Origin: a virus
Length of the DNA stretch: 64,000 bases
Strand: one strand, 5' to 3'
Virus record (IMG/VR): IMGVR_UViG_3300044620_001243
The notes beneath the pieces were generated by a model that searched no databases, was not told where the DNA came from, and was given only the letters and a program-made list of their open reading frames with translations. Shown one piece after another: positions 32,068 to 63,028 of this stretch. The position numbers were made by a program, and so were the translations under genes. Each line of letters starts with the position of its first letter. Within the stretch, counting starts at the first letter, position 1.

Positions 32068-33363
32068 ATGTCTAAATACAAACCCATAGGGATTACACCC
32101 AAAGAAAAAGCAGACCAGTTGTTAGAATCTGTTATGTTTAGTCTAAATAAACAATTTGACCCAAACACAGGTGAATATCAACCAATCCCAACCAACCCGC
32201 ATTATAAAGAATGCGCATTAGCAATTGTAAACGAAATCTTTGAGTTTATTAAAAAAGATGATTTAGATTCCGAAACGGCGTATTGGGCAAATCATCCTAT
32301 TTCTAATTTTTGGGTTGAAGTTGAACGTGAAATTAAAAAACAAATGAATTTGATTCAAATTTTAGAGAATTATTTTCAAAAAGGTTGGTTGATTAAACAA
32401 ACTCACCCAACTTTACCTCTGACAATTTGGAATTATTCCCAAACAACCCAATACGAGGGTAGGTGGGATGAAATAACCCTCATGTGTAGAGGTTTGGTTA
32501 CAGATGATGATGGAAATATTGTTGCCAGACCTTTCAAGAAGTTTTTCAATTTAGAAGAGGGAAAACACACACCAACCTCAGAATTCGAAGTATATGAAAA
32601 GATGGATGGTTCTTTGGGTATTTTCTTTTATTATCAGGAGCAACCCGTTTTTGCATCCAGAGGTTCTTTCACTTCCGACCAAGCCATCAAAGGAAGAACT
32701 CTTTTAGATAAGTATAATTGGCAAGGTGGAACTTACCCTGGCTACACTTACCTATTTGAGATTCTTTACCCGGAAAATCGGATAGTAGTAAATTACGGTG
32801 ATTTAGAAGAACTGGTTGTTTTGGGTGTGCTCAATACCCAAACTGGAGAAGAGTGTGATTTTTCAGAAATGAAAAACGAAGGATTCGTTCTAGTTAAAAA
32901 ATACGATGGAGTTAAAGACTATACCAAATTAAAGAGTATGATTTTTAACAATCAAGAAGGGTTTGTTGTAAAGTTTTCAAACGGAAATAGGGTAAAAATC
33001 AAAGGAGAAGAATACTTGCGTCTTCATAAGATTATGACTGAAGTTTCGACTAAATCTGTTTGGGAGATTTTATCCAATGGTGATAATATGGAAGAGATAC
33101 TCAGAGATGTTCCTGATGAATTTTTTGATAAGGTCAAGGAATATGAAACAGAACTTGTTTCTAAATTTGATGATATAAAGAATGAATACACTTGGATTTA
33201 TAAAGTTTTAGAAAGAAACGAGGAAATTTCAGAAAATAGAGCTATCTTTGCCCAATACGCTAAAAGATACAAACACCCATCCATTTTATTTGGTCTATTG
33301 GACGGTAAAAATATAGACCCTATGATTTGGAAAATAATACAACCCGAATATAAAAAACTATGA
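32068..33363 (+). CDS. ATP-dependent RNA ligase (nucleotidyltransferase motif I KxDGS)
   Basis: EVYEKMDGSLGIFF is the ligase adenylation motif I. Its size and its position next to the phosphatase and kinase genes suggest a T4 RnlA-like tRNA repair ligase. Confidence 0.55.
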   Translation: MSKYKPIGITPKEKADQLLESVMFSLNKQFDPNTGEYQPIPTNPHYKECALAIVNEIFEFIKKDDLDSETAYWANHPISNFWVEVEREIKKQMNLIQILENYFQKGWLIKQTHPTLPLTIWNYSQTTQYEGRWDEITLMCRGLVTDDDGNIVARPFKKFFNLEEGKHTPTSEFEVYEKMDGSLGIFFYYQEQPVFASRGSFTSDQAIKGRTLLDKYNWQGGTYPGYTYLFEILYPENRIVVNYGDLEELVVLGVLNTQTGEECDFSEMKNEGFVLVKKYDGVKDYTKLKSMIFNNQEGFVVKFSNGNRVKIKGEEYLRLHKIMTEVSTKSVWEILSNGDNMEEILRDVPDEFFDKVKEYETELVSKFDDIKNEYTWIYKVLERNEEISENRAIFAQYAKRYKHPSILFGLLDGKNIDPMIWKIIQPEYKKL

Positions 33364-33773
33364 AATACTCAATTTACTTAGATGATGTGAGGACACCCAT
33401 TCCGGGTAATATAGACTGGATTGTTGTCAGAAGCTACGACGAGTTTGTGAGTAAAGTCACCCAAATCGGTCTTGACAACATAGACCTTATTTCCCTCGAC
33501 CATGACCTTGGCGACTCTGCTATGAAGGAGTGGCACACAAATGTCTATCACAACTACACGCTGGATTACAACAACATTACAGAAAAAACAGGTATGGACT
33601 GTGCAAAATGGTTGGTTAATCAGTGGCTGGACGGTGCTCCCGTGGTGAAAGTTATGGTTCATTCTGCAAACGCTATCGGCTCGGCTAATATGATGGGTTA
33701 CATCAACAATTACAAGCATGTGCATAGAATGATACAAGATTGCCAAAGGTGGGTAGTTCCACACACGGTTTGA
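33360..33773 (+). CDS. hypothetical protein (GC-richer, possibly receiver-like fold)
   Basis: 137-aa ORF whose GC content is noticeably higher than the surrounding sequence. Confidence 0.35.
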   Translation: MKYSIYLDDVRTPIPGNIDWIVVRSYDEFVSKVTQIGLDNIDLISLDHDLGDSAMKEWHTNVYHNYTLDYNNITEKTGMDCAKWLVNQWLDGAPVVKVMVHSANAIGSANMMGYINNYKHVHRMIQDCQRWVVPHTV

Positions 33774-33972
33774 TTTTTTGGGAATTTTTTTGTATGTTTG
33801 TGTAAAATGAAATGATGAAAAAATTGTTGTTCCTGATATGTTTTTTCACAATCTCCTGCAATAATGAACGTCCGTGGCGAGTCATTGAGGTGAGACAAAA
33901 AAGTGAAATGTGTGAGTACGTTCTGAGCCGCAGTAACGGACTAGGTCCACAGTTAAAAGAAGTAATCGACAC

Positions 33973-34452
33973 TTGTGGAAAATACCAATGGAATCAAGTA
34001 ATTCAAAACAAAGACCTATGAAACAATACTTAGAGTGGCTTGAAAAACAAATTGACTTTTATTTAGAGGATAAAACGATGCAAAGAGAACATTGGGCTTT
34101 TTGTAAGGCATACGAGAAGTTCAAAAGCCTTGAAACGACCGCTGAATCAGAAGAACTCACACCCTACATTGAATACTACTCCAACGGAAATGTATCTATT
34201 AAAGGACAATTGAACTCCAAAGGACAAGAAGAAGGTCTTTGGGAGTGGTTCTATCCAAACGGAAACATCGAATGGAGAACCCCATACAAGGAGGGTAAGA
34301 TGGATGGAATTGAGGAGCGGTTTGATAAACAAGGAAACATCAAATGGAGAATCCCATACAAAGAGGGAAGGAGGATGGGATTGAGGAGGAATTTGATGAA
34401 CGAGGAAACATCACCGAAACCCATATTTGGAAAGATGGAGAACTAATTGAAT
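33973..34452 (+). CDS. YwqK/MORN-variant repeat protein (3' frameshift)
   Basis: Repeats YxNGNIEWRTPYKEGKxDGIEE. The reading frame breaks near 34367 relative to the paralogs (gagggaagg versus gagggtaagg). The other frame continues …KEGKEDGIEEEFDERGNITETHIWKDGELIE*. Confidence 0.45.
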
Positions 34453-34719
34453 AAACTAAACACTAAACCTATGAAAGACGGACAAACAATCGGCCAATGG
34501 CTGAACTGGGACTTTGAGGACAATGGTAACCTTAATGTTAAAGACAAGAATGGCAATCTCATCTACCAAGAATCTCCAAGTGGCTTTTGGGATAGGCGCG
34601 AATTTAATTCGAATGGCTTTGTCATCTACTATGAAAATTCAGATGGTGTCATTACTGACAACCGCACTCCCGAAATCATCGAACACAACGGACGCAAATA
34701 CCAATTAATTCCTAACTAA
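34447..34719 (+). CDS. hypothetical protein
   Basis: 90-aa ORF. Confidence 0.3.
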   Translation: MNKLNTKPMKDGQTIGQWLNWDFEDNGNLNVKDKNGNLIYQESPSGFWDRREFNSNGFVIYYENSDGVITDNRTPEIIEHNGRKYQLIPN

Positions 34720-34725
34720 AACAAA

Positions 34726-35382
34726 ATGAAACTAATTTTAGAAAAAGACCAAAGATTATTTTTTACTAGTGATACCCACTACAATCACTCTAATATTTGT
34801 AGGGCAACTACAAAATGGGAGGACAGTTATGATGCCACTCGTGATTTTAAATCTTTAAGTCACATGAACGACAGTATTGTTCAGAATATTAATGATTTGG
34901 TAAAAGAAAATGATGTTTTAATCCACATGGGAGATTGGTCATGGGGTGGATTTGAATATATTGAAGAATTTCGAAAAAGGATTGTTTGTAAAAACGTTCA
35001 CTTAGTTTTTGGAAACCATGATGAACATATTAAAAAAAATACAGAAAACATTCAAGATATATTCACATCAACTCATGATTATTTACATTTGGATGTTAGA
35101 CAACCTTCCTCAACCAACAAAGGGTCAGTAAATAAGTTTGAATTTATTTGTATGCACTATCCTATTGCTAGTTGGGATGGTTTGTACCACGGTACAATTC
35201 ATTTACATGGTCACACACATCTAACTCCTAACTCTAGAATTTCACAAGGAAAAGCAATGGATGTTGGTGTAGATGGTAACGAGTATAAACCTTTACTTAT
35301 GCAAGAGATTATTGTTATCATGGGAAATAGAGAAATAAATCACCTTTGTTTACCAAAAGACCGTAACGAAAAAAGAATTTGA
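34726..35382 (+). CDS. metallophosphatase (polynucleotide 3'-phosphatase-like)
   Basis: Calcineurin-like motifs (DTHYNH, GDWSWGG, GNHDEH, GHTH). It is adjacent to and overlaps the kinase gene. Confidence 0.55.
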   Translation: MKLILEKDQRLFFTSDTHYNHSNICRATTKWEDSYDATRDFKSLSHMNDSIVQNINDLVKENDVLIHMGDWSWGGFEYIEEFRKRIVCKNVHLVFGNHDEHIKKNTENIQDIFTSTHDYLHLDVRQPSSTNKGSVNKFEFICMHYPIASWDGLYHGTIHLHGHTHLTPNSRISQGKAMDVGVDGNEYKPLLMQEIIVIMGNREINHLCLPKDRNEKRI

Positions 35383-35783
35383 AAATTATGAAAAATCTAA
35401 TATTATTAAGGGGTTTACCTGGTTCGGGAAAATCGACAGTCGCAAAAATGTTGGTCAACAAAGACTACTGTCATAAAGAAGCAGATATGTTTTTCGTCGA
35501 CAGAGAAGGCAACTATAAGTTCGAGCCGTCGAAAATCAAAGACGCACACGCTTGGTGCCAAGAAGAAGTTGAGTTCTTGTTGAGACTCGAACACACGCCG
35601 GTGGTTGTTTCCAACACATTCACACAAGAATGGGAGATGGAAGCTTATTATAAGTTGGCCAAAGATTACGGTTACACAGTTTTCTCATTGATTGTTGAAA
35701 ACCGACACGGCGGAAGGAATATTCACGGTGTTCCTGATGATAAGTTAGAAATTATGAAAAACAGATTTGAAATAAAATTATGA
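35379..35783 (+). CDS. P-loop polynucleotide kinase-like protein
   Basis: Walker A LRGLPGSGKST. 134 aa. ATGA overlap with the phosphatase gene. Confidence 0.55.
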   Translation: MKIMKNLILLRGLPGSGKSTVAKMLVNKDYCHKEADMFFVDREGNYKFEPSKIKDAHAWCQEEVEFLLRLEHTPVVVSNTFTQEWEMEAYYKLAKDYGYTVFSLIVENRHGGRNIHGVPDDKLEIMKNRFEIKL

Positions 35784-37006
35784 AAGAAAAACAAATTGAT
35801 AAGTTATACCTAGACAGATTCATCGATTCGATGGAGAATGATTATGAAAATTGGAAAATGGACCATTACGCCGGACCAGGGATGTCATGGGCAGAATTTC
35901 ATAGTCCAACTTATGAAAAAGAAAATGGAGGAAGGTTATCTTTTGGTTGGAGTTCAAATCATATTGGTGCCTGGGTGAACGGTCATTTTTCTTGGAAAAT
36001 ACCGTTTGCTGTTTTGAATCCATTCAATCCTATTTTTTGGAAATTCAGAAGGGCCGAAAAAAGAATGAAAAATTATTTGAGAAGTAAAGAAAAAGAGTTA
36101 TATTTGGATAATTTAAAAAACGTATTGTAATGATTAAACTATATTATATAATACTCAAAGATAAAATCCGGTCTTGGAAAAACTTTATCAAAAATATTTG
36201 GTTATTTAGAAAGGAGCTTACTGATTTTCATTGGTGGGATTATAGTGGTCTAATTCAATTTATGAACACAGGCATTAATGAAATGGTTAATGGGATTGAG
36301 AATAAAGGTAGTGAGATTAAGTCCACTAAAATGAAAAAAGTGGACAAAATGAGGCGTGCTTGTGAGATTTTACAAAACCATATAGATGATAACTACACCA
36401 CAATGGCTGAAAACATTTTGGGTAAACTTTACGATTCTGAAATTAAATTTGTTCCTTTGGAAGATAGACCTGATTTATTTAGATATGAAGATGGTTTAAC
36501 TGAAGAACAAAGTGAACACAACTTAAAAGTTTTTTTAAAATCTCGTGAACTTGAAGTTAAGGAATGGGAAGAATTTTGTGAAATAATTAAAGGACAGGGA
36601 GATTTTTTCGAACAAGATAGTTGGGAGGAAGAGTTTGATGGTTCGGGACTTAAAAATTGGTGGAATTAAAATTTTCAAAGCATAAAAAATTATGAAAATA
36701 GAAATAAACAAAACATATTTAACAAAGCACGGTCGATTTGTGAAAATGGTATGTGAGCCTTGGTCCGGAGTATTTAACGGTGAATATGAAGAAGATGGAA
36801 GAGGGGGGGATATGGTTCCCAGATATAAAGAAGATGGAAAAGCGTGGAATGTTTTTTTTACCATGGGGGGTGTTTATTTTCCCGAACACGACATCATAAT
36901 GGAAGATAGTGCTGAAGCAAGAAAACTTGCTCAAGAAATGAAGTTAGAAAGAAAGAGGAAAGCATACGAAGAAACTAATTAAGTATTAATTTTTAATCGA
37001 AAAAAT

Positions 37007-39550: not shown

Positions 39551-39577
39551 GGGAAGAATTGTCTTCCCTTTTTTTTG
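39551..39577 (+). terminator. rho-independent terminator
   Basis: GGGAAGA-ATTG-TCTTCCC hairpin followed by T9. Confidence 0.8.
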
Positions 39578-39613
39578 TTTGGTATTTTAAAATTTATTTC
39601 GTATATTTACACT
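39578..39613 (+). promoter_or_regulatory. Bacteroidetes-type promoter (TTTG-N20-TATATTTA; extended TTCGTATATTTACACTAT)
   Basis: Sits just after the terminator and just before ATG 39614. Confidence 0.5.
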
Positions 39614-40333
39614 ATGAAAACCGTATTCATCGGCGATATTCACGGACGTTCCATTTGGAAAGAAATTGTAGAACAGGAAAAACCTGATAGGGTTATTTTT
39701 GTCGGAGACTATTTCGACTCACTTGATATTCCAGGTATTGACCAAATTCATAATTTTAAAGAAATCATTCACCACAAAAAAACAAGTGGAATTGAGGTTG
39801 TACTGTTGGTAGGTAATCACGATTATCATTATATGGATATGGGTGAAACTTACAGTGGATTTCAACCTGCTCTAAAATTTGATATTGGGCAGTTACTCAA
39901 AGAAAATATGGAACATTTACAAATGGCACATTCATTTGATAATTTCCTTTGCACCCACGCTGGTGTATCTTCGGTGTTTATGAATGATAATTTTAGAGAT
40001 AGTTGGGATTGCGATAATTTAGTTGAAAAACTGAATGAAACATTTAAATATTCTCCATTCATTTTTAAGTTCAATGGTTTTAATCCATATGGGGATAATG
40101 AAACACAATCACCTATTTGGATTAGGTTGAATTCATTGAGAAGTTCAAATAACAAACGAGGTAAAGATGGAATTAAAAAGCAATTTATTCAAGTGTTTGG
40201 ACACACCCAAGTTAAAGAAATTGATTTGGTTGGAATGGCGAAATTTTTAGGTGGTAGATATATTATGATTGATGCTTTACCATCCCGTCAATACCTAATT
40301 TACAATGGAGAAATTAAAGTAGGAAAAGTGTAA
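39614..40333 (+). CDS. Ser/Thr protein phosphatase-family metallophosphoesterase
   Basis: VFIGDIHGR, FVGDYFD and GNHD. Start moved to the ATG at 39614, downstream of the promoter box. Confidence 0.7.
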   Translation: MKTVFIGDIHGRSIWKEIVEQEKPDRVIFVGDYFDSLDIPGIDQIHNFKEIIHHKKTSGIEVVLLVGNHDYHYMDMGETYSGFQPALKFDIGQLLKENMEHLQMAHSFDNFLCTHAGVSSVFMNDNFRDSWDCDNLVEKLNETFKYSPFIFKFNGFNPYGDNETQSPIWIRLNSLRSSNNKRGKDGIKKQFIQVFGHTQVKEIDLVGMAKFLGGRYIMIDALPSRQYLIYNGEIKVGKV

Positions 40334-41579: not shown

Positions 41580-41587
41580 GTGGAATA

Positions 41588-41725
41588 GTCAGATGGCGAA
41601 ATGTAGCCGCTATTTGGGTAAAACAGTTTAACACGAGACGCGAACCTCACACAAAGCCTGATAATAACCAAATGAAAGTGCGAAGTACAGTAACACTTAT
41701 ACGGGTTCGACTCCCGTTCTGACTG
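41588..41725 (+). tRNA. diverged tRNA-like unit (acceptor AGTCAGA/TCTGACT, T-arm ACGGGTTCGACTCCCGT; non-canonical core)
   Basis: Same architecture as the 44.8-48.2 kb family but diverged in sequence. No canonical anticodon arm was found. Confidence 0.4.
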
Positions 41726-42727: not shown

Positions 42728-43375
42728 ATGATTAATAATATTGAACTTATTAAACCCCTATTGAATTATGAAGAACACGGGGATTTTTACATGCTCTATG
42801 TTTTTAAAAGAAAAAAAGACCAACCCGAAGGAGAAAAAGATAACCATCAATCTGTTAGGACAATAAAAACATATTGTGTAGAAAGTATTGAATACTTAGA
42901 AAAAAGATTTGATGAGATAAAAGAATTGTGTGAATATTTTAAAGCGAGAGCATACATCCATGTTCAAAAACAAAACCATAAGGATGTCTCATTAGATATG
43001 ATGATTAGTTTGGCGGAAAAAATTAAAAATGGGCAACTGAATCAAAAGAATCTATTTGATTCGGTTGTTGGTCAAATAAAAACACACGAGAAAAGATGGG
43101 TCATTGACATTGATGGGTCTGAAACCCCATCTCCATTAATGATGGCAAATATTGAATATCATTGTAAACCAATAACCACACTTAAATATGATAAATCGGG
43201 GGTGATGAACGGTTATACTTCTGGCCCAAAAATTGAGGCCATTATCCCAACAAAAAACGGTCACCATATCATCACGAAAAAATTTGATGTGATGGAGTTT
43301 AAAAAATATTATCCCGATGTCGATATTCAAAAAAAGAATCCAACATTATTATATTATCCAAAAAGTTTAGGATAA
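42728..43375 (+). CDS. hypothetical protein
   Basis: ORF in the frame of the 42659..43375 track entry, with the start moved to ATG 42728 to avoid overlap. Confidence 0.35.
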   Translation: MINNIELIKPLLNYEEHGDFYMLYVFKRKKDQPEGEKDNHQSVRTIKTYCVESIEYLEKRFDEIKELCEYFKARAYIHVQKQNHKDVSLDMMISLAEKIKNGQLNQKNLFDSVVGQIKTHEKRWVIDIDGSETPSPLMMANIEYHCKPITTLKYDKSGVMNGYTSGPKIEAIIPTKNGHHIITKKFDVMEFKKYYPDVDIQKKNPTLLYYPKSLG

Positions 43376-44653: not shown

Positions 44654-44727
44654 AGCGGGGTGGTGGCAGATGGTAGCCCGCCAGGCTCATAACCTGGAGG
44701 TCGTAGGTTCGAGTCCTACCCCCGCAA
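44654..44727 (+). tRNA. tRNA-Met (CAT); 1:72 A:A mismatch, could be an initiator or a tRNA-Ile2-type
   Basis: Anticodon stem CCAGG/CCTGG with loop CTCATAA. T-arm GTAGG-TTCGAGT-CCTAC. Acceptor AGCGGGG/CCCCGCA. Promoter box TATATTTG at 44620. Confidence 0.8.
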
Positions 44728-44791
44728 CCGTATAGTTTTTGTTCTTTGACATCTTGGGAATTAAAAGTAAAAGTCGAGAGACTTAAAAATT

Positions 44792-44901
44792 AGTCAGGTG
44801 GCGGAATTGGTAGACGCAAGTGAGAATAGTAATTGCGCTGATGTAGCGGCAGATGCAGTAAGTTATTATTCATACAGGTTCGAGTCCTGTCCTGACTACC
44901 A
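44792..44901 (+). tRNA. tRNA-like unit 1 (Leu-type scaffold, 56-nt variable core, CCA encoded)
   Basis: 5' AGTCAGGTGGCGGAATTGGTAGACGC … ACAGGTTCGAGTCCTGTCCTGACTACCA 3'. Acceptor strands are complementary. No canonical anticodon arm was found. Confidence 0.5.
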
Positions 44902-44992
44902 AAGAAACAAGTAAAACGCAAACGCACAGTCCCTTGATGCATCAGGTGAGGCGCACACTGTATACTGGATGACCTCTGTTTCTTTTTTAATC
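44902..44992 (+). repeat. 91-nt spacer, identical copy at 45370-45460
   Basis: Exact duplicate following the two CCA-encoding units 1 and 3. It contains an AGAAACA…TGTTTCT helix followed by a T-run (terminator-like). Confidence 0.7.
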
Positions 44993-45101
44993 AGTCAGGT
45001 GGCGGAATTGGATAGACGCATTGAGGAATCTAAACTTGGTAGCATTTGTTAGATTTAATAGTAATCCTCCTTCCTTACAGGTTCGACTCCTGTCCTGACT
45101 A
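44993..45101 (+). tRNA. tRNA-like unit 2 (variable core 57 nt)
   Basis: Same conserved flanks. The core has a GAGGA…TCCTC stem enclosing 37 nt. Confidence 0.5.
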
Positions 45102-45267
45102 CGACAGTTAGCAGATAATACTTGGTAGTTCTTGTAACGTCTGACTATGCGTGAGGTGGTTTTATAACTTTCCACCAGCTGGTCCAAAACTAAAAGTTAA
45201 TACAGGTTTAATAACGGGGTGAAGGAAAGTCTAACTAACAAGTACTTCACTACCTACTGTAAAAATT

Positions 45268-45369
45268 AGTCAGGTGACGAAATTGGTAGACGTGCCACGA
45301 ATAAAACTAAGTGGTGGAGAAACAGCTTTCAGGCACTCCATACAGGTTCGAGTCCTGTCCTGACTACCA
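45268..45369 (+). tRNA. tRNA-like unit 3 (CCA encoded; compensatory D-stem A10:T25)
   Basis: D-stem ACG/CGT versus GCG/CGC in the other units. Followed by the same 91-nt spacer as unit 1. Confidence 0.5.
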
Positions 45370-45460
45370 AAGAAACAAGTAAAACGCAAACGCACAGTCC
45401 CTTGATGCATCAGGTGAGGCGCACACTGTATACTGGATGACCTCTGTTTCTTTTTTAATC

Positions 45461-45558
45461 AGTCAGGTGGCGGAATGGTAGACGCACTGGACAGGCGATG
45501 CATTTAAAACAGAAATAAGCCCAGTCGGTACTTACAGGTTCGAATCCTGTCCTGACTA
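45461..45558 (+). tRNA. tRNA-like unit 4
   Basis: Conserved flanks. The core has an ACTGG…CCAGT stem with a 30-nt loop. Confidence 0.5.
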
Positions 45559-45926
45559 CAAATCTTAGGAGTAATTAACCTAAGACTGAGAGGTTCGAAA
45601 CTCTCGATTGGCTATGGTGTAATGGGCACAGAGAAACGGAGTACGAAAGGGGTTACGGGAATTTTCCCGCAAACATCAGAAACGGGACTCAGGATTATGG
45701 TTCGAATCCATATTAGTCAACAAGCCGTCTTTTTTTCTTGTCCGCCGTGGACGTGGATTGTTGAGACGTAAAAGTAACAATCGATTGATTAGAGAACGGT
45801 AGGATACAGGTTCACTAGACGAAGGTAGAAGTTTTTTTTTGATAGATGGGTTTGAGTTCTTTATAACAACAAACCAACTATAATTCAGTAGGGACAAATG
45901 GGAGCGGCTTACTCCAGTCCCGAAAT

Positions 45927-46085
45927 AGTCAGGTGGCGGAATTGGTAGACGCTATGAAATCATGTTTTAAGATTGAACGGGTAGGCAGACGTAACATATA
46001 GGTAAAAGAGTGTTATCGCCGAATACACTTATAAGGGTCCTATGAAAAAACTTCAATCATACAGGTTCAAGTCCTGTCCTGACTA
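45927..46085 (+). tRNA. tRNA-like unit 5 (110-nt core)
   Basis: Conserved flanks with T-arm ACAGGTTCAAGTCCTGT. The very long core suggests an insertion or intron. Confidence 0.45.
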
Positions 46086-46328
46086 CACGTTCCGAAACAG
46101 ACAACGGATAGTTCCACTATGAACGATGAGAAACAGGGTGATGTCCTGTATTAGTTATCGCCTCCCGAATGCGGTCGGGATAGGTTGACCACCTAAACAT
46201 CAGCAATGTGAACGGTCTATTTCTAACTCACCTACGTTTGTAAGACAACATAGAAGTGACGAGACGGGAAACTCGTCGTGAGGACATCCAAGACACCTGT
46301 AAGTTGGATAAATTAGGGTGTTATTTTT

Positions 46329-46451
46329 AGTCAGGTGTGGGTAAAAATGCGCTAACTGGAAACCCACTGAAAGCGAAAGCAAAGTCGAGGTCTAAATGCG
46401 CACTATGGCCGAGGTAATGGCGAGATACAGGTTCAAGTCCTGTCCTGACTA
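46329..46451 (+). tRNA. tRNA-like unit 6 (altered D region)
   Basis: Acceptor AGTCAGG/CCTGACT and T-arm conserved. The D region is replaced by TGGG…CCCA. Confidence 0.4.
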
Positions 46452-46596
46452 CAAAGACAATGGTTTTCCCCATTCAACGGATGTCGACAATCCAGAATGG
46501 AATCGGAATTCAGCACCCTCAGCCGAGGCGCCTCGTAAAACTACGATTAAGCTGTTAAGATTGGAGCGAGACGGGTACTCCATCATTGTCTTATTT

Positions 46597-46668
46597 GGTC
46601 GGTTCATCTAGAGGTTAGGATACAAGATTTTCATTCTTGTCACATGGGTTCGATTCCCATACCGACTA
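46597..46668 (+). tRNA. tRNA-Glu (TTC)
   Basis: Clean cloverleaf. Acceptor GGTCGGT/ACCGACT, D GGAT-loop-ATCT, anticodon stem CAAGA/TCTTG with loop TTTTCAT, T-arm ATGGG-TTCGATT-CCCAT. 72 nt. Confidence 0.8.
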
Positions 46669-46833
46669 CCTTGGAGGTATAGGGGTAAACCCTTGAGGCG
46701 AAGTACAAGCCATAGTCACTGAACTTAAACTGACCTCCAACCAAATTAGAAGTGTCGCAATACGCGTTTCAATCTAATTGATAGACGTATCAATGAAGAT
46801 GTTCGAGGGTGAAAATCCCAAGCTTCTAATCCT

Positions 46834-46938
46834 CCATTCTTAGTGTTATGTGGTTAAAACACGTTAACTCTTACATCGCCTGATTAGCGCTAATCCGAAT
46901 GTAAGACGAGTAAGTTGGTTCGAATCCAACAGAATGGA
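46834..46938 (+). tRNA. tRNA-like gene with distinct acceptor (CCATTCT/AGAATGG), canonical D and T arms, and a 26-nt insertion inside a TCTTAC/GTAAGA helix (possible intron-containing tRNA)
   Basis: D-arm GTGT-loop-ACAC and T-arm GTTGG-TTCGAAT-CCAAC. The core is too long for a type I tRNA and the anticodon is unresolved. Confidence 0.45.
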
Positions 46939-47216
46939 CAATGAGTAAGAGATACTCAGAGTCTTTGGTCTAAGACTTAAACAATAGACTCGCAGAATGT
47001 CTACGGCGTGAGTGGGACATCATGGGAACAAAGAAGAGTCACACACCTTCTCCCAGTAGTGTTGACAGGTTTTTATGTGGTAAGACACTAATGAAAAAGA
47101 CTCGTTCTATGGGGTACTTATCTGGAGTATCAAACAAGTGTGAGTGATATGGTTCTCGAACAGACAGAGAAACCCGTTAAAATCTACCCGTCTGGAATCT
47201 CAGGATGGGGAAACAT

Positions 47217-47319
47217 AGTCAGGTGGCGGAGTGGGCTAACGCTAACTTGGAAGAGTCTGAGGAGTGGTAACCAAGTACCTATACTCTGATGACCGCAGGT
47301 TCGAATCCTGTCCTGACTA
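47217..47319 (+). tRNA. tRNA-like unit 7
   Basis: Conserved flanks (D-loop variant AGTGGGCTAA, T-stem GCAGG). The core has a CTTGG…CCAAG stem. Confidence 0.45.
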
Positions 47320-47337
47320 CAAAAATAAATTAAAATT

Positions 47338-47598
47338 ATGTTTATAGAAAGATTTTTTAACCCCTATGTGTCATCTCACGAAAGGGTATTATATGAGAAT
47401 AAAGAAGCAATTGAACATTGTTTGAAATATCATACATGGATTAGACATTATTCATTTGAAGGTGATGAATATATCAAAAATGTTAATGGTAAATTAGTTT
47501 GGAATGATGGTAGTAAAGTTGATAAAAGAAAATTACCTAAAAAAGGAAAAGGATGGGGCAGATATTCAAGTGAACTTTATAATTTGTGTTCTTTTTAA
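47338..47598 (+). CDS. small hypothetical protein embedded in tRNA island
   Basis: 86-aa ORF that exactly fills the gap between units 7 and 8. Confidence 0.35.
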   Translation: MFIERFFNPYVSSHERVLYENKEAIEHCLKYHTWIRHYSFEGDEYIKNVNGKLVWNDGSKVDKRKLPKKGKGWGRYSSELYNLCSF

Positions 47599-47605
47599 AT
47601 TAAAT

Positions 47606-47751
47606 AGTCAGGTGGCGGAATTGGTTAGACGCTGTAAAAGTAAGATATGGGAATTGTGCACTCGGTAAACCTACGCACAAGGCTTAGATAGTTGTGCAAC
47701 AGCGGAAAGTCTTACAAAACTATCTTACAGGTTCGAATCCTGTCCTGACTG
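47606..47751 (+). tRNA. tRNA-like unit 8 (95-nt core closed by 8-bp GTAAGATA/TATCTTAC helix; discriminator G)
   Basis: Conserved flanks. The self-contained closing helix suggests an inserted element or intron. Confidence 0.45.
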
Positions 47752-47906
47752 CAAAATTAAAGATATGTTTAGAACATTAAATTATATTTGGAAATTGTTT
47801 TGGAAAAGACCTAGTAGAAGAGTATTTTTTATATTTTTTAGAATGCTAAAAACGGAAATTAAGTGTTTAATGTTGACTGGATACTCAACAGATGAATTAC
47901 TAAATT

Positions 47907-48033
47907 AGTCAGGTGGCGGAATTGGTAGACGCACGATTTATTGTTTAACGATGTGGCTCAATGTCCTAATGGATGAGAGAAAATAAACAGAGAAATATAC
48001 CACATACAGGTTCGAATCCTGTCCTGACTACCA
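47907..48033 (+). tRNA. tRNA-like unit 9 (CCA encoded)
   Basis: Conserved flanks with a 73-nt core. Confidence 0.45.
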
Positions 48034-48085
48034 AGTTAACCCACTAAGACTAGAAACGGGTGACACCTCGGAAAGACGAGGACAT

Positions 48086-48170
48086 AGTCAGGTGGCGGAA
48101 TGGATAGACGCGGCCCTATCAGGGGTAGAGGCGAAAGAAACTCATACAGGTTCGAATCCTGTCCTGACTA
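48086..48170 (+). tRNA. tRNA-like unit 10 (85 nt, type-II length)
   Basis: Conserved flanks. The 34-nt core forms CCCT-ATC-AGGG and GAG…CTC minihairpins but no 7-nt anticodon loop. Confidence 0.45.
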
Positions 48171-48278
48171 CACAGTGTTGGCTTCAAGGACCTATTAGGG
48201 AAGTACACTTAAATAAAACAAGAACGGGGAAAACACCGAATCTGCAGATAACGGCGAAGTACCAACGAAAGGTGAAAC

Positions 48279-48352
48279 GACCTCATAGCTTAATTGGTAA
48301 AGCACCTGGCTTTTAACCAGGGGAGTCCAGAGTTCGAGTCTCGGTGGGGTCA
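48279..48352 (+). tRNA. tRNA-Lys (TTT)
   Basis: Acceptor GACCTCA/TGGGGTC, D GCTT-AATTGGTA-AAGC, anticodon stem CCTGG/CCAGG with loop CTTTTAA, T-loop TTCGAGT. Confidence 0.85.
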
Positions 48353-48553
48353 CAAAGGTTGATTGGGGAATGATGGTGACAAAGACTTGAGAGTTTATGC
48401 CGGTCGTTACCATCGGAGTTGGGAGGTATAAACCTAAGCAATGCCAATCGTAAAAGGAGTTGTCCACTCGACCATCTTCTCCTTTCCTTTTTTTTAAAAA
48501 AATTCTTAAAGACACATTTTGGTTTTATCATTTTACTTTTGTATATTTTACAT

Positions 48554-54256: not shown

Positions 54257-54261
54257 ATAAC

Positions 54262-54897: not shown

Positions 54898-54902
54898 GTT
54901 AT

Positions 54903-55621: not shown

Positions 55622-56194
55622 ATGGAAAAAAATCTAAATGAAGAGATTTCAAGAATAAAATCAATAATCAATTTTATGAATGAAAATGAATTGCCCAAAA
55701 ATTCTGGAGACTTAATAAGGATGTTACCTGAAAAGTTAAAAGAATTATTTTTCAATCAATGGAAAGCAAAACAAAACCCAAAATGGCACCCCGAAGGTAA
55801 CACATTGAAACATATTCTTGTTGTAATTAAAAGGGCTTATCATTATTATCCTGATGACCCCAATATGATTATGGCGGCGTTGTTTCATGATTTGGGGAAA
55901 ATTGATACATACAACATTAACCCAAAAACGGGGGAACCAACTGCGTATGGTCATGAGAACAAGTCAGTGCAATATGTGGAAGAATTCAAAGATTGGATTC
56001 AGAGTTTTGAGGGAACGAACGTGGAAGAGATTAAATATTTGGTTAAAAACCATATGAAGGTAAAACCATCCACATGGGACTCAATGAGGGATATTAAGAA
56101 AGAACCGATACAATCACACCCCGCATTTGATAAATTAATGGGTTTTACAAGTAAATTGGATGGTGGGGGGATTAATTTGGAAAAAAATATTTAA
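55622..56194 (+). CDS. HD-domain phosphohydrolase (CCA-enzyme C-terminal-domain-like 2',3'-cyclic phosphodiesterase)
   Basis: KWHPEGNTLKH…LFHDLGK matches the KWHPE…H…HDxGK pattern of the bacterial CCA-adding enzyme HD domain. Confidence 0.5.
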   Translation: MEKNLNEEISRIKSIINFMNENELPKNSGDLIRMLPEKLKELFFNQWKAKQNPKWHPEGNTLKHILVVIKRAYHYYPDDPNMIMAALFHDLGKIDTYNINPKTGEPTAYGHENKSVQYVEEFKDWIQSFEGTNVEEIKYLVKNHMKVKPSTWDSMRDIKKEPIQSHPAFDKLMGFTSKLDGGGINLEKNI

Positions 56195-56830: not shown

Positions 56831-57448
56831 ATGCAAAAAGTTATTTTCTTGGATATTGATGGGGTAATGAACTCACATATTTTCTATGAACAAAGGCATA
56901 GAAAAAGATGGTTGAAATGGAGAACTTATTATTTTTTGATTAGAAGATTTTTGGGGATTAAATCCAAATCCGTGAGTCTTGCTAACCACAAAACACCCAA
57001 ATCCCATTGCACATACCAACACCAATTTAAAAGATTAAAAGAAGAGACTTGTCAGCAAAAATGGAAATGGCTTGCTAATTTCTGCAACGAGACTGGAACT
57101 AAAATTTGTGTATCATCTGTGTGGAGATTTCATTTTGGAAATGAAGAATCGGTTATACCCCTGTGGTGGGAACGAGCACTGATTGATTTGGGTTTCAACG
57201 AAGGAACATTTGTTGGTATCACCGACAGATTGGGAATGAGAGGAGAAGAAATCAAGGATTGGCTTCAAAAAAATCAGGAAGTTCAGGAATATGCAATTTT
57301 AGATGATGACTCTGATATGCTACCTGAACAGATGGATAAATTTTATCATTGTGATGGATATTTTGGTCTTTCTCCCAATCACTTATATCGTATCCAAAGA
57401 GCCTTCTCGGGTAAAAGTAAATATGGACATTTGAATAAAACCGTATAA
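56831..57448 (+). CDS. HAD-like hydrolase
   Basis: VIFLDIDGVMN (motif I) and ILDDDSD (motif IV-like). Confidence 0.45.
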   Translation: MQKVIFLDIDGVMNSHIFYEQRHRKRWLKWRTYYFLIRRFLGIKSKSVSLANHKTPKSHCTYQHQFKRLKEETCQQKWKWLANFCNETGTKICVSSVWRFHFGNEESVIPLWWERALIDLGFNEGTFVGITDRLGMRGEEIKDWLQKNQEVQEYAILDDDSDMLPEQMDKFYHCDGYFGLSPNHLYRIQRAFSGKSKYGHLNKTV

Positions 57449-61222: not shown

Positions 61223-61412
61223 TCGAATCCTGACTGCAAATCAAATCAACTAAAAACAAAACAAATGAAAAATAAGTTAAAAACAATTTGGCATGATTTT
61301 TGGACTGACCCCCTATACTACATTGTAATTATGTCGTATATTGGTTTGCTTTTAATTATGTTAATAGTTAGTGTGGCTTGGTTTATCCAACCTTTAATAA
61401 AATAACAAAACA

Positions 61413-61501
61413 GTCAGGTGGTGGAATTGGTTAGACCGTCCCCTCCCTTAAGTGGAAGGGGGAGACCGAAAGGTATACAGGTTCGAATCCTGTCCTGACT
61501 A
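61413..61501 (+). tRNA. tRNA-like unit a (89 nt; D-stem shifted with compensatory changes)
   Basis: GGTGG/CCGT D-arm variant. The core folds best as a CTCCCTT/AAGGGGG helix with an AAGTGG loop rather than as an anticodon arm. An alternative reading as tRNA-Leu (CUUAAGU loop) would need a mismatch. Confidence 0.45.
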
Positions 61502-61685
61502 CTAAAAATTAAAGAATTATGAAAATAAAAGTACACTTATTAAGTCAATCTAAACCGATTGAATATGAGGATGTGAAAAACGCATACACAAAAAGCGGTT
61601 TGTATTGTGTCTATCTAAAAAACAATCAAGTACACAAATACCCTTTGTGTAATGTATTTAGAATTGAAGAAGATTATTAAAACAT

Positions 61686-61768
61686 AGTCAGGTGGCGAAA
61701 TTGGATAGACGCTAGGGAAACCTTCCCGAGAATGAAAGTTCATATAGGTTCGAGTCCTGTCCTGACAA
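61686..61768 (+). tRNA. tRNA-like unit b (83 nt; A1:A72 mismatch)
   Basis: 3' acceptor CCTGACA. The core has a GGGAA-ACC-TTCCC minihairpin. Confidence 0.4.
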
Positions 61769-61784
61769 CTAAAAATTAAAGAAT

Positions 61785-61967
61785 ATGGAATGGGTTGAAA
61801 TTAAAAATGGAAAACCAAAAGATGGTAGTTGGGTACTAATTCAAAGTTCTTTGAAGAACGTACCGAAATATGAGGTTTGCTATTATGAAAATGATGAATG
61901 GTACATACCTTCGTATAATGATGTATGTGAAGAGAAACATATTATTAAATGGTCGTACATTGAATAA
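61785..61967 (+). CDS. small hypothetical protein
   Basis: 60 aa, lying between units b and c. Confidence 0.35.
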   Translation: MEWVEIKNGKPKDGSWVLIQSSLKNVPKYEVCYYENDEWYIPSYNDVCEEKHIIKWSYIE

Positions 61968-61973
61968 TCAAAC

Positions 61974-62096
61974 AGTCAGGTGGCGGAATTGGTAGACGTA
62001 TAGAGTAGGGAGTAGCACTCCATTTATGGTAAGGCAAGCAAATAAGACCTAACCCTCTAAGGTAGCACCATACAGGTTCGAATCCTGTCCTGACTA
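61974..62096 (+). tRNA. tRNA-like unit c (123 nt)
   Basis: Conserved flanks (D 3' strand CGT). The core contains GGAGT-AGC-ACTCC. Confidence 0.4.
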
Positions 62097-62115
62097 CAAA
62101 CAAACAAAAAAAAAT

Positions 62116-62322
62116 ATGAGTCAATTTATCAACACAAATCACGCAAACGAAGCGGCAAGAGAAGCCTTTCAGGGTTATAGGAAAGACACAGAAAGAATCA
62201 AACAAATCAGACAGATGTTACAGAATGGTGAATCTGTTAGCAATGAAGATATTCTTTGGTTGTGTCAAAGAGCTCAATCAGGCATACTACAAGAAGAATC
62301 AAGTTGGTATGACCACGGATAA
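62116..62322 (+). CDS. small hypothetical protein
   Basis: 68 aa, after an AAACAAACAAAAAAAAATATG leader. Confidence 0.35.
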   Translation: MSQFINTNHANEAAREAFQGYRKDTERIKQIRQMLQNGESVSNEDILWLCQRAQSGILQEESSWYDHG

Positions 62323-62328
62323 AAATAT

Positions 62329-62435
62329 AGTCAGGTGGCGGAATTGGTAGACGCAATAAGGCATGGAAACATGCGCATCATGACGGATTGGTGATATTAG
62401 CCAAAGTTATACAGGTTCGAATCCTGTCCTGACTA
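62329..62435 (+). tRNA. tRNA-like unit d (107 nt)
   Basis: Conserved flanks. The core contains GCATG-GAAAC-ATGC. Confidence 0.4.
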
Positions 62436-62454
62436 CAATAAAAAAACAAAACAA

Positions 62455-62943
62455 ATGAAACTAAATCAAAACTCACTCTCGGCAAAACTCTATCGTTGGT
62501 TCTATAAAACCGACACAATGCCAACCAACCTATGTCCTTACTTTTGGAAACTGGTCACTGCGGTGATTCTTTCACCTTTGCTTGCAATTCACACCCTACC
62601 CTATGAAATCATCAACTACAAACGTCAGCGTTGGGATACATACAGTGATATGCTCGGAATATCGCTTGTTTGTTGGTGCCTTATCGCTGTTGTTATTTGC
62701 ATGATTTCATCATTGGGTCTTTTCTTTTACATCCCTGATAAGGGTTCATCACTTTGGACAATGATGTCAATCGGTCTTATTTGTTGGGGTACCCTTATCC
62801 TAGTTGGCATTACTTGGGCTATTACTAAAACAGTAGTATACTTAAAATCAAAGAAGAGTGATAATGAAAAGACAGACAACATCATCGTTGAAATGGTGAA
62901 AGCAAAGTATCACAAATACTGCCCTAAAATTGATTGGAAGTAA
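62455..62943 (+). CDS. small integral membrane protein
   Basis: 162 aa with 3-4 TM segments. Leader AAAAACAAAACAAATG. Confidence 0.4.
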   Translation: MKLNQNSLSAKLYRWFYKTDTMPTNLCPYFWKLVTAVILSPLLAIHTLPYEIINYKRQRWDTYSDMLGISLVCWCLIAVVICMISSLGLFFYIPDKGSSLWTMMSIGLICWGTLILVGITWAITKTVVYLKSKKSDNEKTDNIIVEMVKAKYHKYCPKIDWK

Positions 62944-62950
62944 AACAAAT

Positions 62951-63028
62951 AGTCAGGTGGCGGAATGGTAACGCAGCTCGCGGTGTACACAAAGGGGTGA
63001 ATTGCAGGTTCGAATCCTGTCCTGACTA
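62951..63028 (+). tRNA. tRNA-like unit e (78 nt)
   Basis: Conserved flanks (D-loop AATGGTAA, T-stem GCAGG) with a 29-nt core. Confidence 0.4.

Follow-up and report, generated by a model that had tools for sequence, protein, structure and literature searches.

The genes described here, carried by an uncultured large phage, most likely rejoin cut RNAs, probably tRNAs, that bacterial defences have severed. We put at roughly 60% the probability that they form a phage heal-and-seal RNA repair pathway split across several genes (Table 1) in the window, the 64,000-nucleotide stretch of viral DNA analysed here. The healing-and-sealing reading of the biochemistry, proposed in an earlier note, is supported by an Rnl1-type ligase, a kinase model that matches polynucleotide kinases, a family in which the three activities are fused, and synteny across unrelated phages. 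The set is a new example of a strategy already familiar in phage T4 and in jumbo phages, not a new kind.

Table 1. Protein and RNA features of the repair set and its surroundings in the window.
Feature	Position	Strand	Basis
Trio: ligase, phosphatase, kinase	32068-33363, 34726-35382, 35388-35783	+	
92-aa N-terminal extension of 431-aa ligase ORF	32068..32343	+	Separate small gene in relatives
ATP-dependent RNA ligase, T4 RnlA (Rnl1) family, sealing step	32344..33363	+	PF09511, PDB, phrog_562, motifs
cREC (cyclic-phosphate-processing receiver-like) protein	33360..33773	+	PF20274, phrog_1479
Binuclear metallophosphoesterase, Aquifex aq_1665 type	34726..35382	+	PF00149, phrog_547, PDB 1xm7
Stand-alone P-loop kinase, 131 aa; candidate 5'-OH polynucleotide kinase	35388..35783	+	Profiles, AF2 model, motifs
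116-aa protein, function unknown	35780..36130	+	ATGA overlap with kinase (translational coupling)
Lambda-phosphatase/NinI-like metallophosphoesterase	39575..40333	+	GDIHG, GDxxD, GNHD; PF00149
Single further scaffold RNA copy	41587-41725		
215-aa uncharacterised protein, phrog_14949	42728..43375	+	Recurrent operon member in relatives
RNA gene array: canonical tRNAs with 10 tRNA-Leu-like scaffold RNAs interspersed	44654..48353	+	ARAGORN, Rfam, scaffold-half matching
Met-CAT tRNA	44654-44729	+	ARAGORN/Rfam
Glu-TTC tRNA	46597-46670	+	ARAGORN/Rfam
Lys-TTT tRNA	48279-48353	+	ARAGORN/Rfam
HD-domain phosphohydrolase, like HD domain of class II CCA-adding enzymes	55622..56194	+	PF01966, PRK10885
HAD phosphatase, 'Swiss-army-knife' RNA-repair family	56831..57448	+	PF18143 HAD_SAK_2
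Second array, 5 scaffold RNAs	61412..63028	+	

Family membership and intact catalytic motifs are direct observations for the trio, and the earlier note's three assignments, an RNA ligase with motif I KMDGS, a calcineurin-like phosphatase and a Walker-A kinase, are borne out by them. The full ligase reading frame matches Pfam RNA_lig_T4_1 (5.4e-17; 62.8 bits, cutoff 28.3), phrog_562 (4e-71) and the T4 Rnl1 structures 2c5u and 5tt6 (2e-17, in an alignment that covers motifs I, III, IV and V); its match to the NCBIfam T4 RnlA model TIGR02308 (1.1e-23) reaches 84 bits, below the equivalog cutoff of 242. The motif residues are K178 (KMDGS), E231 (FEIL), E297 (EGFVV) and K310/K312 (KIKG). The N-terminal extension is explained by one extra base: in three related loci (L001, L004, L019) the TGA of an upstream ORF overlaps the ligase ATG, and the additional base at this junction in the window produces in-frame read-through that fuses 92 aa to the ligase. 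Both the 431-aa and the 339-aa form occur in public assemblies within the same 90% cluster, and the extension weakly matches phrog_21441, of unknown function (6.5e-5).

The kinase matches Pfam AAA_33 (PF13671; 3.8e-13), phrog_2071 (7e-43) and phrog_505 'polynucleotide kinase' (2.6e-10), and carries the Walker A motif GLPGSGKST, D36 and R109/R113. By sequence alone, its matches to polynucleotide kinases of solved structure fall short of significance (E 0.16-0.5). Its AF2 model (pLDDT 78), compared with the PDB by Foldseek, has as top matches the C. thermocellum Pnkp kinase (4jt2/4gp7, 5e-5), T4 Pnkp (2ia5, TM 0.66), Pnkp1 (4xru) and mammalian PNKP, so that the predicted fold comes closest to 5'-OH polynucleotide kinases. 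Profile and Foldseek searches thus yielded neither of the identities on which the healing-and-sealing reading would founder: the 32068 protein is Rnl1-type and was rejected as a DNA ligase or capping enzyme, and dNMP kinase was rejected because the kinase model matches polynucleotide kinases first. Homologues of 131-134 aa argue for the kinase start at ATG 35388, 5 nt past the phosphatase stop; the kinase-phosphatase overlap described earlier arises only with a TTG start at 35379 and is lost with the likelier ATG. The 116-aa protein encoded downstream, placed in the repair set by position only, has no match in Pfam and PHROG searches and trails the kinase in L001-L004 and L006 at 95-97% identity.

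Linkage of these genes across divergent phages is likewise observed directly. All three lie where the earlier note had placed them; the close spacing that it described holds for the kinase and phosphatase, which nearly abut, but not for the ligase, separated from the phosphatase by 1.36 kb in which the cREC protein and a MORN-repeat protein are encoded along with a 90-aa ORF. The trio is linked in some 25 contigs of related uncultured phages, with its members adjacent or a few kb apart in at least 10 gene orders and at 46-98% protein identity. In loci fetched via the ligase alone, the phosphatase (19/23) and the kinase (17/23) occur within 10 kb, often abutting, and this linkage is far above chance level. 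A CCA-adding nucleotidyltransferase head domain joins the trio in relatives, where tRNA arrays also precede it, and two cultured, unrelated phages also carry it as a cluster: Vibrio phage Athena (gp170, gp171, gp173) and Salmonella phage SSE121. PHROG searches place the kinase, phosphatase and ligase at positions 1-106, 193-252 and 405-682 of phrog_8238, a 737-aa kinase-phosphatase-ligase fusion family. The region of the window around the repair set is an accessory-gene mosaic.

Such clustering could instead reflect a shared 'anti-defence island' rather than one pathway, with the cREC protein, the metallophosphoesterases and the HD protein mainly destroying immune signals derived from cyclic nucleotides or ADP-ribose (CBASS, type III CRISPR, Thoeris-like). 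The mosaic character of the region fits this account, as do the NAD+ salvage genes that adjoin the Athena and SSE121 clusters and the SIR2 gene beside the latter. We nevertheless consider it unlikely: the 34726-type phosphatase adjoins the kinase in most related loci, with stop and start (nearly) coupled in many gene orders, and kinase, phosphatase and ligase also exist as a single fused polypeptide family. Abutting genes and a fused family together suggest that the enzymes act jointly on a single substrate.

In the RNA repair pathway that we favour, a metal-independent ribonuclease would cut RNA, most plausibly tRNA, leaving one end with a 2',3'-cyclic phosphate and the other with a 5'-OH. 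One or more phosphoesterases would open and then strip the cyclic phosphate to a 3'-OH, with the ligase-coupled cREC protein and the 34726 metallophosphoesterase as candidates and the lambda-phosphatase-like, HAD_SAK_2 and HD enzymes as possible backups. The 5'-OH would be phosphorylated by the 131-aa kinase, and the Rnl1 ligase would seal the ends by way of lysine-AMP (K178), AppRNA and finally the phosphodiester. The substrates, the steps given to each phosphoesterase and the biological purpose are what we infer from these families and their linkage. Phage T4 Rnl1 (RnlA, gp63) and Pnkp (PseT) reverse PrrC cleavage of tRNA-Lys; by analogy, the most likely purpose here would be to survive tRNA-cutting ribotoxins of the host or a competitor, and the set might, as had been suggested and in line with the usual reading of such genes, counter tRNA nucleases of the PrrC, RloC, VapC or PARIS type.

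With five different enzymes available to carry out one or two chemical steps, roles are not assignable to individual phosphoesterases. The 34726 enzyme, a candidate 3'-end healer acting as cyclic phosphodiesterase and/or phosphomonoesterase, matches Pfam Metallophos (1.3e-6), phrog_547 (6e-40), PDB 1xm7 (6.6e-6) and, weakly, the Pnkp-like phrog_8238 fusion family (3e-4). Its metal-ligand motifs DxH, GD, GNHD and GHxH are complete (D16/H18, D70, N97/H98, H144, H163/H165); we know of no characterised member of the aq_1665-type family. The 39575 enzyme (PF00149, 1.5e-11; NinI-like phrog_246, 1.4e-7) matches phrog_8238 positions 173-249 better (7.9e-7), belongs to the class nearest to the bacterial Pnkp phosphatase domain, remains in the neighbourhood of the set in L001-L004, L006 and L105, and is a candidate second 3'-end healing enzyme. 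Precedent comes from the C. thermocellum Pnkp system, whose metallophosphoesterase domain is a proven 2',3'-cyclic phosphodiesterase, and from lambda phosphatase, which also hydrolyses 2',3'-cyclic phosphates (PMC2190708). The cREC protein matches PF20274 at 1.8e-21, as well as phrog_1479; its start overlaps the ligase stop in an ATGA junction indicative of translational coupling, and in L015, L017, L018, L019, L027, L073 and L147 a cREC gene is close to the ligase or the phosphatase. It is a candidate for opening 2',3'-cyclic phosphate ends, a function assigned only by computational prediction (PMC7824862).

Two more distant genes complete this group. The 56831 HAD protein (HAD_SAK_2, 4.1e-19; DxD nucleophile motif at residues 8-10) is a candidate 3'- or 2'-phosphomonoesterase, and in L011, L020, L024-L026 and L105 homologues of the family are encoded 2-8 kb away from the ligase. 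The HD protein (PF01966, 3.4e-7), with HPEG and FHDLGK motifs, has its best matches, of moderate strength, in the CCA-enzyme HD region (NCBIfam PRK10885 positions 200-289, 1.3e-8; phrog_2244 tRNA nucleotidyltransferase, 1.7e-6; PDB 3wfo, 0.03). This agrees with its earlier assignment, but the gene is 20 kb from the trio, no homologue lies near the ligase in any fetched locus, and its domain family is its one tie to the set. It is possibly an extra 2',3'-phosphoesterase, weakly linked to the others. The cREC, HAD_SAK_2, lambda-phosphatase-like and phrog_14949 genes did not figure in the earlier note.

The repair set may have the RNAs of the array at 44654..48353 among its clients. Each half of the scaffold is found 16 times in the window against 0-0.13 expected, and the copies combine an invariant tRNA-Leu-like shell with hypervariable structured inserts. 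The interiors of these tRNA-shaped RNAs resemble an anticodon arm no more closely than shuffled sequence does. The family is widespread among uncultured phages, and we found no description of it. The earlier count of more than 20 tRNA or tRNA-like genes was roughly right (3-4 canonical plus 16 tRNA-like), but most are not decodable tRNAs, and a picture of tRNA provisioning plus repair is weaker for an inventory made mainly of these tRNA-shaped RNAs.

This excess of scaffold RNAs over ordinary tRNAs raises the question of whether the set serves the phage's own scaffold RNAs, through repair, maturation or cut-and-rejoin (insert removal or exchange, circularisation), rather than host tRNAs. Three scaffold copies lie directly 5' of the ligase in L021 and one just 5' of the CCA-NTase-ligase operon in L024-L026, and kinase, phosphoesterase and Rnl1-type ligase chemistry is also that of fungal and plant tRNA splicing by Trl1, with its Rnl1-like ligase, 5'-kinase and 2',3'-cyclic-phosphate healing (PMC10946426). 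We regard this account as quite unlikely. Of 134 loci that carry scaffolds (mean 8.8 kb), just 11 contain a repair gene, roughly as many as random placement in a genome of 100-300 kb would produce; intron models fit shuffled inserts as well as real ones; an Rfam search of the window found no known self-cleaving ribozymes; and a search of the phage collection gave no scaffold match for the trio-bearing Athena and SSE121. Trl1 is one polypeptide whose 2H phosphodiesterase leaves a 2'-phosphate that Tpt1 then removes, whereas no 2H, Tpt1 or splicing endonuclease genes were seen here. A Pfam match to Sen15 at 54262 was rejected, as the protein concerned consists of DUF4116 repeats and solved structures give no support.

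The repair reading is closest in its parts to T4 and to bacterial Pnkp/Hen1 systems. With T4 the set shares the ligase family and motifs, the Pnkp-type kinase fold and the three-step chemistry of kinase, 3'-phosphoesterase and ligase. The T4 kinase is, however, fused to a HAD (DxDxT) phosphatase, whereas here it stands alone, the linked phosphatase is a binuclear metallophosphoesterase, a HAD of another family lies 21 kb off, and cREC, HD and unknown proteins are added; the ligase, too, differs in falling below the RnlA equivalog cutoff and in its fused 92-aa ORF. That the ligase acts mainly in virion assembly, as a T4 gp63-like tail-fibre attachment catalyst, with the kinase and phosphatase acting on nucleotides or on DNA ends (also substrates of T4 Pnkp), is very improbable, for although phrog_562 and many GenBank records are labelled 'RNA ligase and tail fiber protein attachment catalyst', that role is to our knowledge confined to T4 gp63, which is also active in RNA ligation, and the gene here has tRNA-type genes and RNA-repair domains as neighbours rather than structural genes. 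The bacterial systems (C. thermocellum Pnkp; Pnkp1/Rnl/Hen1) likewise combine kinase, metallophosphoesterase and ligase, and the CthPnkp kinase is the best match of our kinase model. Here the polypeptides are separate, the ligase is Rnl1-type, the operon-linked phosphatase is of the aq_1665 type with the lambda-phosphatase-type enzyme encoded separately, and no Hen1-like methyltransferase was seen among 50 ORFs scanned.

The same repair logic has already been described for jumbo phages by Iyer, Anantharaman, Krishnan, Burroughs and Aravind (2021; PMC7824862), and their survey reports an inventory like that found here: Rnl1, Rnl2 and RtcB ligases with polynucleotide kinases, cREC, HAD 'Swiss-army-knife' and CCA-adding enzymes, many tRNAs, and occasional calcineurin-like and HD phosphatases. 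Their survey covered sequenced jumbo phages, whereas the present set belongs to an uncultured lineage related to Flavobacterium phages. The passages of the survey consulted here make no mention of the triad of phrog_2071 kinase, aq_1665-type phosphatase and Rnl1, of its phrog_14949 partner, or of the triad in non-jumbo cultured phages such as Athena and SSE121.

The phrog_14949 protein, for which a Pfam search gave no match, lies within the operon in L007/L008 (in the order phrog_14949-phosphatase-kinase-ligase), in L011/L020 and in L024-L026 (CCA-NTase-ligase-phrog_14949-phosphatase-kinase). Its 6821 homologues (1693 representatives at 50% identity) share the invariant residues R28, K30, R74, D127, D129, G178 and F186 and a nearly invariant H180.

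The RNA-end genes of the window are best accounted for by a multi-gene heal-and-seal pathway, a model to which we give a probability of about 0.6. Under this model at least one phosphoesterase would turn 2',3'-cyclic-phosphate ends into 3'-OH, a P-loop kinase would turn 5'-OH into 5'-phosphate, and an Rnl1-type RNA ligase would close the break. What was observed for this repair set is the family membership of its proteins, their motifs and the linkage of their genes. Its substrates, the division of labour among its five phosphoesterases and a counter-defence purpose are proposed on the basis of the T4 Rnl1/Pnkp-PrrC paradigm and of Iyer et al.'s comparative analyses. The earlier note had read these genes as RNA repair and had named a DNA ligase or capping enzyme, a dNMP kinase and LpxH as the competing identities; none of these emerged, the ligase falling in the Rnl1 family and the kinase model lying nearest to polynucleotide kinases.

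Positions of the repair genes, scaffold RNAs and neighbouring features (window positions unless a comparison locus is named)
Feature	Position	Matches and remarks
RNA ligase ORF	32068-33363	Pfam RNA_lig_T4_1 (PF09511) 5.4e-17; T4 Rnl1 crystal structures 2e-17; phrog_562 4e-71
cREC, receiver-like domain	33360-33773	PF20274 1.8e-21, 77 bits vs cutoff 27
Binuclear metallophosphoesterase (aq_1665-type phosphatase)	34726-35382	Nearest: uncharacterised Aquifex aq_1665 (1xm7), phrog_547; PF00149 above cutoff
P-loop kinase	35388-35783	AAA_33, phrog_2071; more weakly PHROG polynucleotide-kinase family
Lambda-phosphatase/NinI-like enzyme	39575-40333	GDIHG/GDxxD/GNHD signature
phrog_14949 protein, 215 aa	42728-43375 (ORF from 42659)	Inside ligase/phosphatase/kinase operon in several relatives
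HD protein	55622-56194	HPEG and FHDLGK motifs; best matches: HD region of CCA-adding/repair enzymes
HAD 'Swiss-army-knife' RNA-repair phosphatase	56831-57448	PF18143 HAD_SAK_2 about 4e-19, 69.8 bits vs cutoff 27.5
Scaffold RNAs, 16 copies	41587-41725 (1); 44792-48170 (10); 61412-63028 (5)	
Third metallophosphoesterase, YfcE/LpxH-like	27873-28574	PF00149 at 5e-14
MORN_2-repeat proteins, three	33973-34446; 37007-38032; 57468-58595	
SPFH/Band 7 protein	38671-39525; L163 202-1026	
Thymidylate-synthase homologue, NDP-hexose 2,3-dehydratase, GFO/IDH/MocA oxidoreductase, aminotransferase, glycosyltransferase	6871-8016; 49002-51418; 22711-23811; 28489-29289	Thymidylate-synthase homologue 381 aa, large insertion
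DUF4116-repeat proteins, three tandem paralogues	53525-55616	'GITPSEDVQLAAV' type
Ribosomal protein S21	L024-L026 18883-19071	Minus strand; 77-289-kb phage contigs
Annotated tRNA-Cys of Flavobacterium phage immuto	L027 7880-7965	86 nt

The ligase contains nucleotidyltransferase motifs I (KxDG), III, IV and V, and its residues K178 (KMDGS), E231, E297 and K310/K312 align with K99, E159, E227 and K240/K242 of the T4 enzyme. It scores 62.8 bits on PF09511 against a cutoff of 28.3 and 84 bits on NCBIfam TIGR02308 against an equivalog cutoff of 242, so that by sequence we classify it as a member of the T4 RnlA (Rnl1) family and not as a strict T4 RnlA orthologue or equivalog. Its predicted activity is ATP-dependent sealing of 3'-OH/5'-PO4 RNA ends. 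In T4 Rnl1 a C-terminal helical domain confers tRNA specificity. Alignments of the window ligase to this protein extend to T4 residue ~300-318 of 374 and leave the final ~50 residues unaligned. In close relatives the first 92 residues (32068-32343) are encoded by an ORF of their own that lies upstream and ends in a TGA overlapping the ligase ATG (32344); in the window a 1-nt difference joins them in frame to the ligase. Public assemblies hold both the 431-aa and the 339-aa forms.

For the kinase, the best start is the ATG at 35388, giving a protein of 131 aa that matches its stand-alone homologues in length (131-134 aa). This arrangement differs from that of T4 Pnkp, in which the kinase is fused to a DxDxT HAD 3'-phosphatase, and fused forms were absent from the best 120 homologues each of the phosphatase and the kinase, all of which stand alone. 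The Walker A motif GLPGSGKST, D36 (EADMF) and R109/R113 all occur in the kinase and are conserved across its family; the residue alignment to T4 Pnk is weak (E 0.16), and sequence matches to solved kinases were insignificant. A Foldseek search of the PDB with the AlphaFold model (pLDDT 78) returned as its first nine hits eight entries for polynucleotide kinases of bacteria or T4 (CthPnkp, T4 Pnkp, Pnkp1) followed by mammalian PNKP, with PSTK at rank 10 and polynucleotide kinases preceding any nucleotide kinase. The modelled fold is closest to the 5'-OH polynucleotide kinase clade (T4 Pnkp and CthPnkp kinases).

Five candidate phosphoesterases could supply the healing of 3' ends. The NinI-like, cREC and HAD_SAK_2 members, and likewise the phrog_14949 protein, go unmentioned in the earlier note. 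The aq_1665-type phosphatase carries the metal-ligand motifs DxH, GD, GNH(D/E), H and GHxH at D16/H18, D70, N97/H98, H144 and H163/H165, which place it among the predicted calcineurin-like binuclear metallophosphoesterases, and it has no GDxHG/GDxxDRG signature. The NinI-like enzyme is the closest analogue, by class, of the Pnkp phosphatase, an enzyme with proven 2',3'-cyclic phosphodiesterase activity (PMC2190708); on the phosphatase segment of the PHROG family phrog_8238 it scored 7.9e-7, compared with 3.3e-4 for the aq_1665-type phosphatase. In the cREC domain D8/D9 and D47/D49 are present, the family being marked by a conserved acidic pair and a central Asp; in PMC7824862 the family is predicted to process cyclic phosphates and is reported in operonic linkage with RNA ligases. 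The DxD nucleophile motif of the HAD_SAK_2 protein is D8-I-D10, and several relatives have a protein of this family 2-8 kb away from their ligase gene. The HD protein, 20 kb from the trio of ligase, aq_1665-type phosphatase and kinase, aligns to PRK10885 positions 200-289 with 34 bits (cutoff 451), and its best matches agree with the earlier suggestion that it resembles the HD domain of CCA enzymes. An E. coli Cca-type enzyme combines a Pol-beta nucleotidyltransferase head with an HD domain, whereas the window holds the HD part only: tblastn with a relative's protein detected no CCA nucleotidyltransferase head (PolyA_pol) in the window. Relatives encode a stand-alone 244-aa CCA head domain adjoining the ligase, and HD homologues were found near the ligase in none of the fetched loci.

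In the window the cREC start overlaps the ligase stop, 5 nt separate the phosphatase stop from the kinase start, and the ORF that follows the kinase overlaps its stop. Kinase, phosphatase and ligase match positions 1-106, 193-252 and 405-682 of the 737-aa phrog_8238, a kinase-phosphatase-ligase fusion family. The resemblance of the trio to bacterial Pnkp/Hen1 is limited to these matches. Pnkp/Hen1 combines kinase, lambda-phosphatase-like and ligase domains in one polypeptide with a Hen1 methyltransferase, whereas the window genes are separate, and a Hen1-like methyltransferase had no match among the 50 window ORFs scanned. Among 23 comparison loci fetched by the ligase only, the phosphatase occurs in 19 and the kinase in 17. 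The gene orders met in comparison loci (L numbers, mostly uncultured phage contigs) include ligase-phosphatase-kinase (L001-L006), phrog_14949-phosphatase-kinase-ligase (L007, L008), phosphatase-kinase-ligase-CCA head (L009), phosphatase-kinase-phrog_14949-ligase (L011, L020), CCA head-ligase-phrog_14949-phosphatase-kinase (L024-L026) and ligase-kinase-phosphatase-cREC (L073, L147). Vibrio phage Athena (Demerecviridae) has RNA ligase gp170, 'ATPase' gp171, gp172 and 'phosphoesterase' gp173 in this order, and Salmonella phage SSE121 (Vequintavirinae) encodes an unannotated Rnl1 homologue, a kinase and a phosphatase within 3.2 kb on the same strand, the three proteins being AFU63860, AFU63862 and AFU63865. 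That the trio stays linked in the uncultured relatives despite so much reshuffling, at 46-98% identity, points to selection for co-expression. A reading in which the phosphoesterases degrade signals and are merely co-located with the ligase seems to us unlikely.

The phrog_14949 protein found within this operon comes from a very large family without annotation, represented by 1693 sequences at 50% identity. Residues R28, K30, R74, D127, D129, G178 and F186 are invariant and H180 nearly so; among its motifs WIxDxD is invariant and NGxHLIT nearly invariant. These invariant residues suggest that the protein is an enzyme.

The window is AT-rich (GC 28-40%), with nearly all genes on the + strand, and near-identical DNA was absent from the phage record collection. 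Many metagenomic contigs encode window-type proteins; one of them, 69 kb long, contains the window sequence, and related contigs extend to 135-289 kb. Among cultured phages, Flavobacterium phage vB_FspM_immuto_3-5A comes nearest for two of the proteins, with 58% identity for the phosphatase and 71% for cREC. Given the metagenomic relatives and the Flavobacterium-phage affinity, the window most likely represents accessory genes of a large uncultured phage of Bacteroidota, the host assignment being weak. A Pfam scan of 50 ORFs described the surroundings of the trio as a mix of sugar-modification, nucleotide-metabolism, methylase, helicase and repeat-protein genes. The thymidylate-synthase homologue and the four enzymes tabulated with it could form a sugar or nucleotide pathway, perhaps for DNA hypermodification. 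One MORN_2 gene separates the ligase/cREC pair from the phosphatase, and related phages carry other insertions there (~4.7 kb in L019); the same locus has a homologue of the third metallophosphoesterase (62% identical) ~1.5 kb upstream of the ligase. The SPFH/Band 7 protein repeatedly adjoins the ligase or kinase in many relatives (L009, L012, L013, L016, L019), and a homologue lies ~4.6 kb from the kinase in phage SSE121. Ribosomal protein S21 is encoded near the repair cluster in related contigs.

In the window ARAGORN called 6 tRNAs and Rfam 10. Of the large tRNA inventory described in the earlier note, three members are canonical tRNAs, Met-CAT, Glu-TTC and Lys-TTT; the others are a family of 16 copies of a tRNA-Leu-like scaffold RNA that give no anticodon-arm signal above shuffled sequence. 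These copies weaken a picture of tRNA supply plus tRNA repair for the window. Their near-identical ends, AGTCAGGTGGCGGAAT(T)GGTAGACGC ... ACAGGTTCGAATCCTGTCCTGACTA, form tRNA-Leu-like acceptor, D and T arms, whereas the interiors all differ (20-110+ nt) and occupy the position of the anticodon and variable arms. Scaffold RNAs also occur in L004, L009, L019, L021, L024-L026 and L029-L162, and a 25-mer of the 3' half was found in at least 120 IMG/VR stretches. The exact 25-mer had 14 matches across 185,579 species genomes, every one of them a scaffold with an insert of its own on a phage-like MAG contig of low GC and never a normal host tRNA, and a host tRNA copy was rejected as an explanation. 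Among 50,697 phage records, mostly of cultured phages, the scaffold was absent, with only partial D- or T-arm matches to ordinary phage tRNAs.

The 209 distinct scaffold copies carry 179 unrelated insert types. The inserts apparently are structured, because variants of the D stem covary and, by eye, compensatory changes can be seen within small groups of orthologous inserts. An anticodon arm with a 5-bp stem and 7-nt loop was rejected for the interior: ARAGORN calls on the 209 members were no commoner than on shuffled interiors in every length class but the rare longest, and worked examples have 3-5-nt loops or 8-bp stems. With introns allowed, ARAGORN called 9-10 window copies intron-bearing tRNAs, and splicing was likewise rejected, call rates on the 209 members equalling those on shuffled interiors. 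Searches recovered no known ribozyme or intron family for these RNAs, and matches of the inserts to window genes as antisense guides were only self-matches. The DUF4116-repeat proteins yield spurious Pfam matches to Sen15, DRTGG and FeoA; the match to Sen15, a splicing endonuclease subunit, at 54262-54897 is a repeat-protein artefact unsupported by solved structures. The literature searched held no description of the scaffold family. We judge it about as likely as not, or slightly more so, that the family is real and undescribed, and it may represent a new class of phage RNA.

That the repair set serves these scaffold RNAs through maintenance, processing or rejoining, with scaffolds rather than host tRNAs among its true clients, is quite doubtful, as repair genes accompany 11 of 134 scaffold loci, about the chance level. 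A morphogenetic or DNA-end role for the set is very improbable.

RNA repair by phages is the textbook counter to tRNA-cutting bacterial immunity, and experimental tests of it are, to our knowledge, nearly confined to T4. The split version of the heal-and-seal pathway proposed here is conserved both in uncultured phages of freshwater type and in cultivable phages of Vibrio and Salmonella, and cultured phage records label the trio genes merely 'ATPase', 'phosphoesterase' or 'hypothetical'. Jumbo-phage RNA repair sets of such composition have already been described computationally, with calcineurin-like and HD enzymes sometimes supplying the phosphatase (PMC7824862). Our additions are the conserved stand-alone triad of kinase, aq_1665-type phosphatase and Rnl1 ligase that reaches cultivable phages, and its phrog_14949 partner. 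The system offers a tractable route to the function of two large enzyme families, phrog_547 and phrog_14949, to that of the cREC domain, and to the bacterial ribotoxins that such phages meet. The part likely to surprise specialists is the scaffold RNA family, a by-product that may outweigh the repair finding and that could serve as a natural 'tRNA scaffold' for small functional RNAs. The annotated tRNA-Cys of phage immuto is over-long and has a different shell sequence, and it may be another expanded-interior tRNA-shaped RNA, in a cultivable phage.
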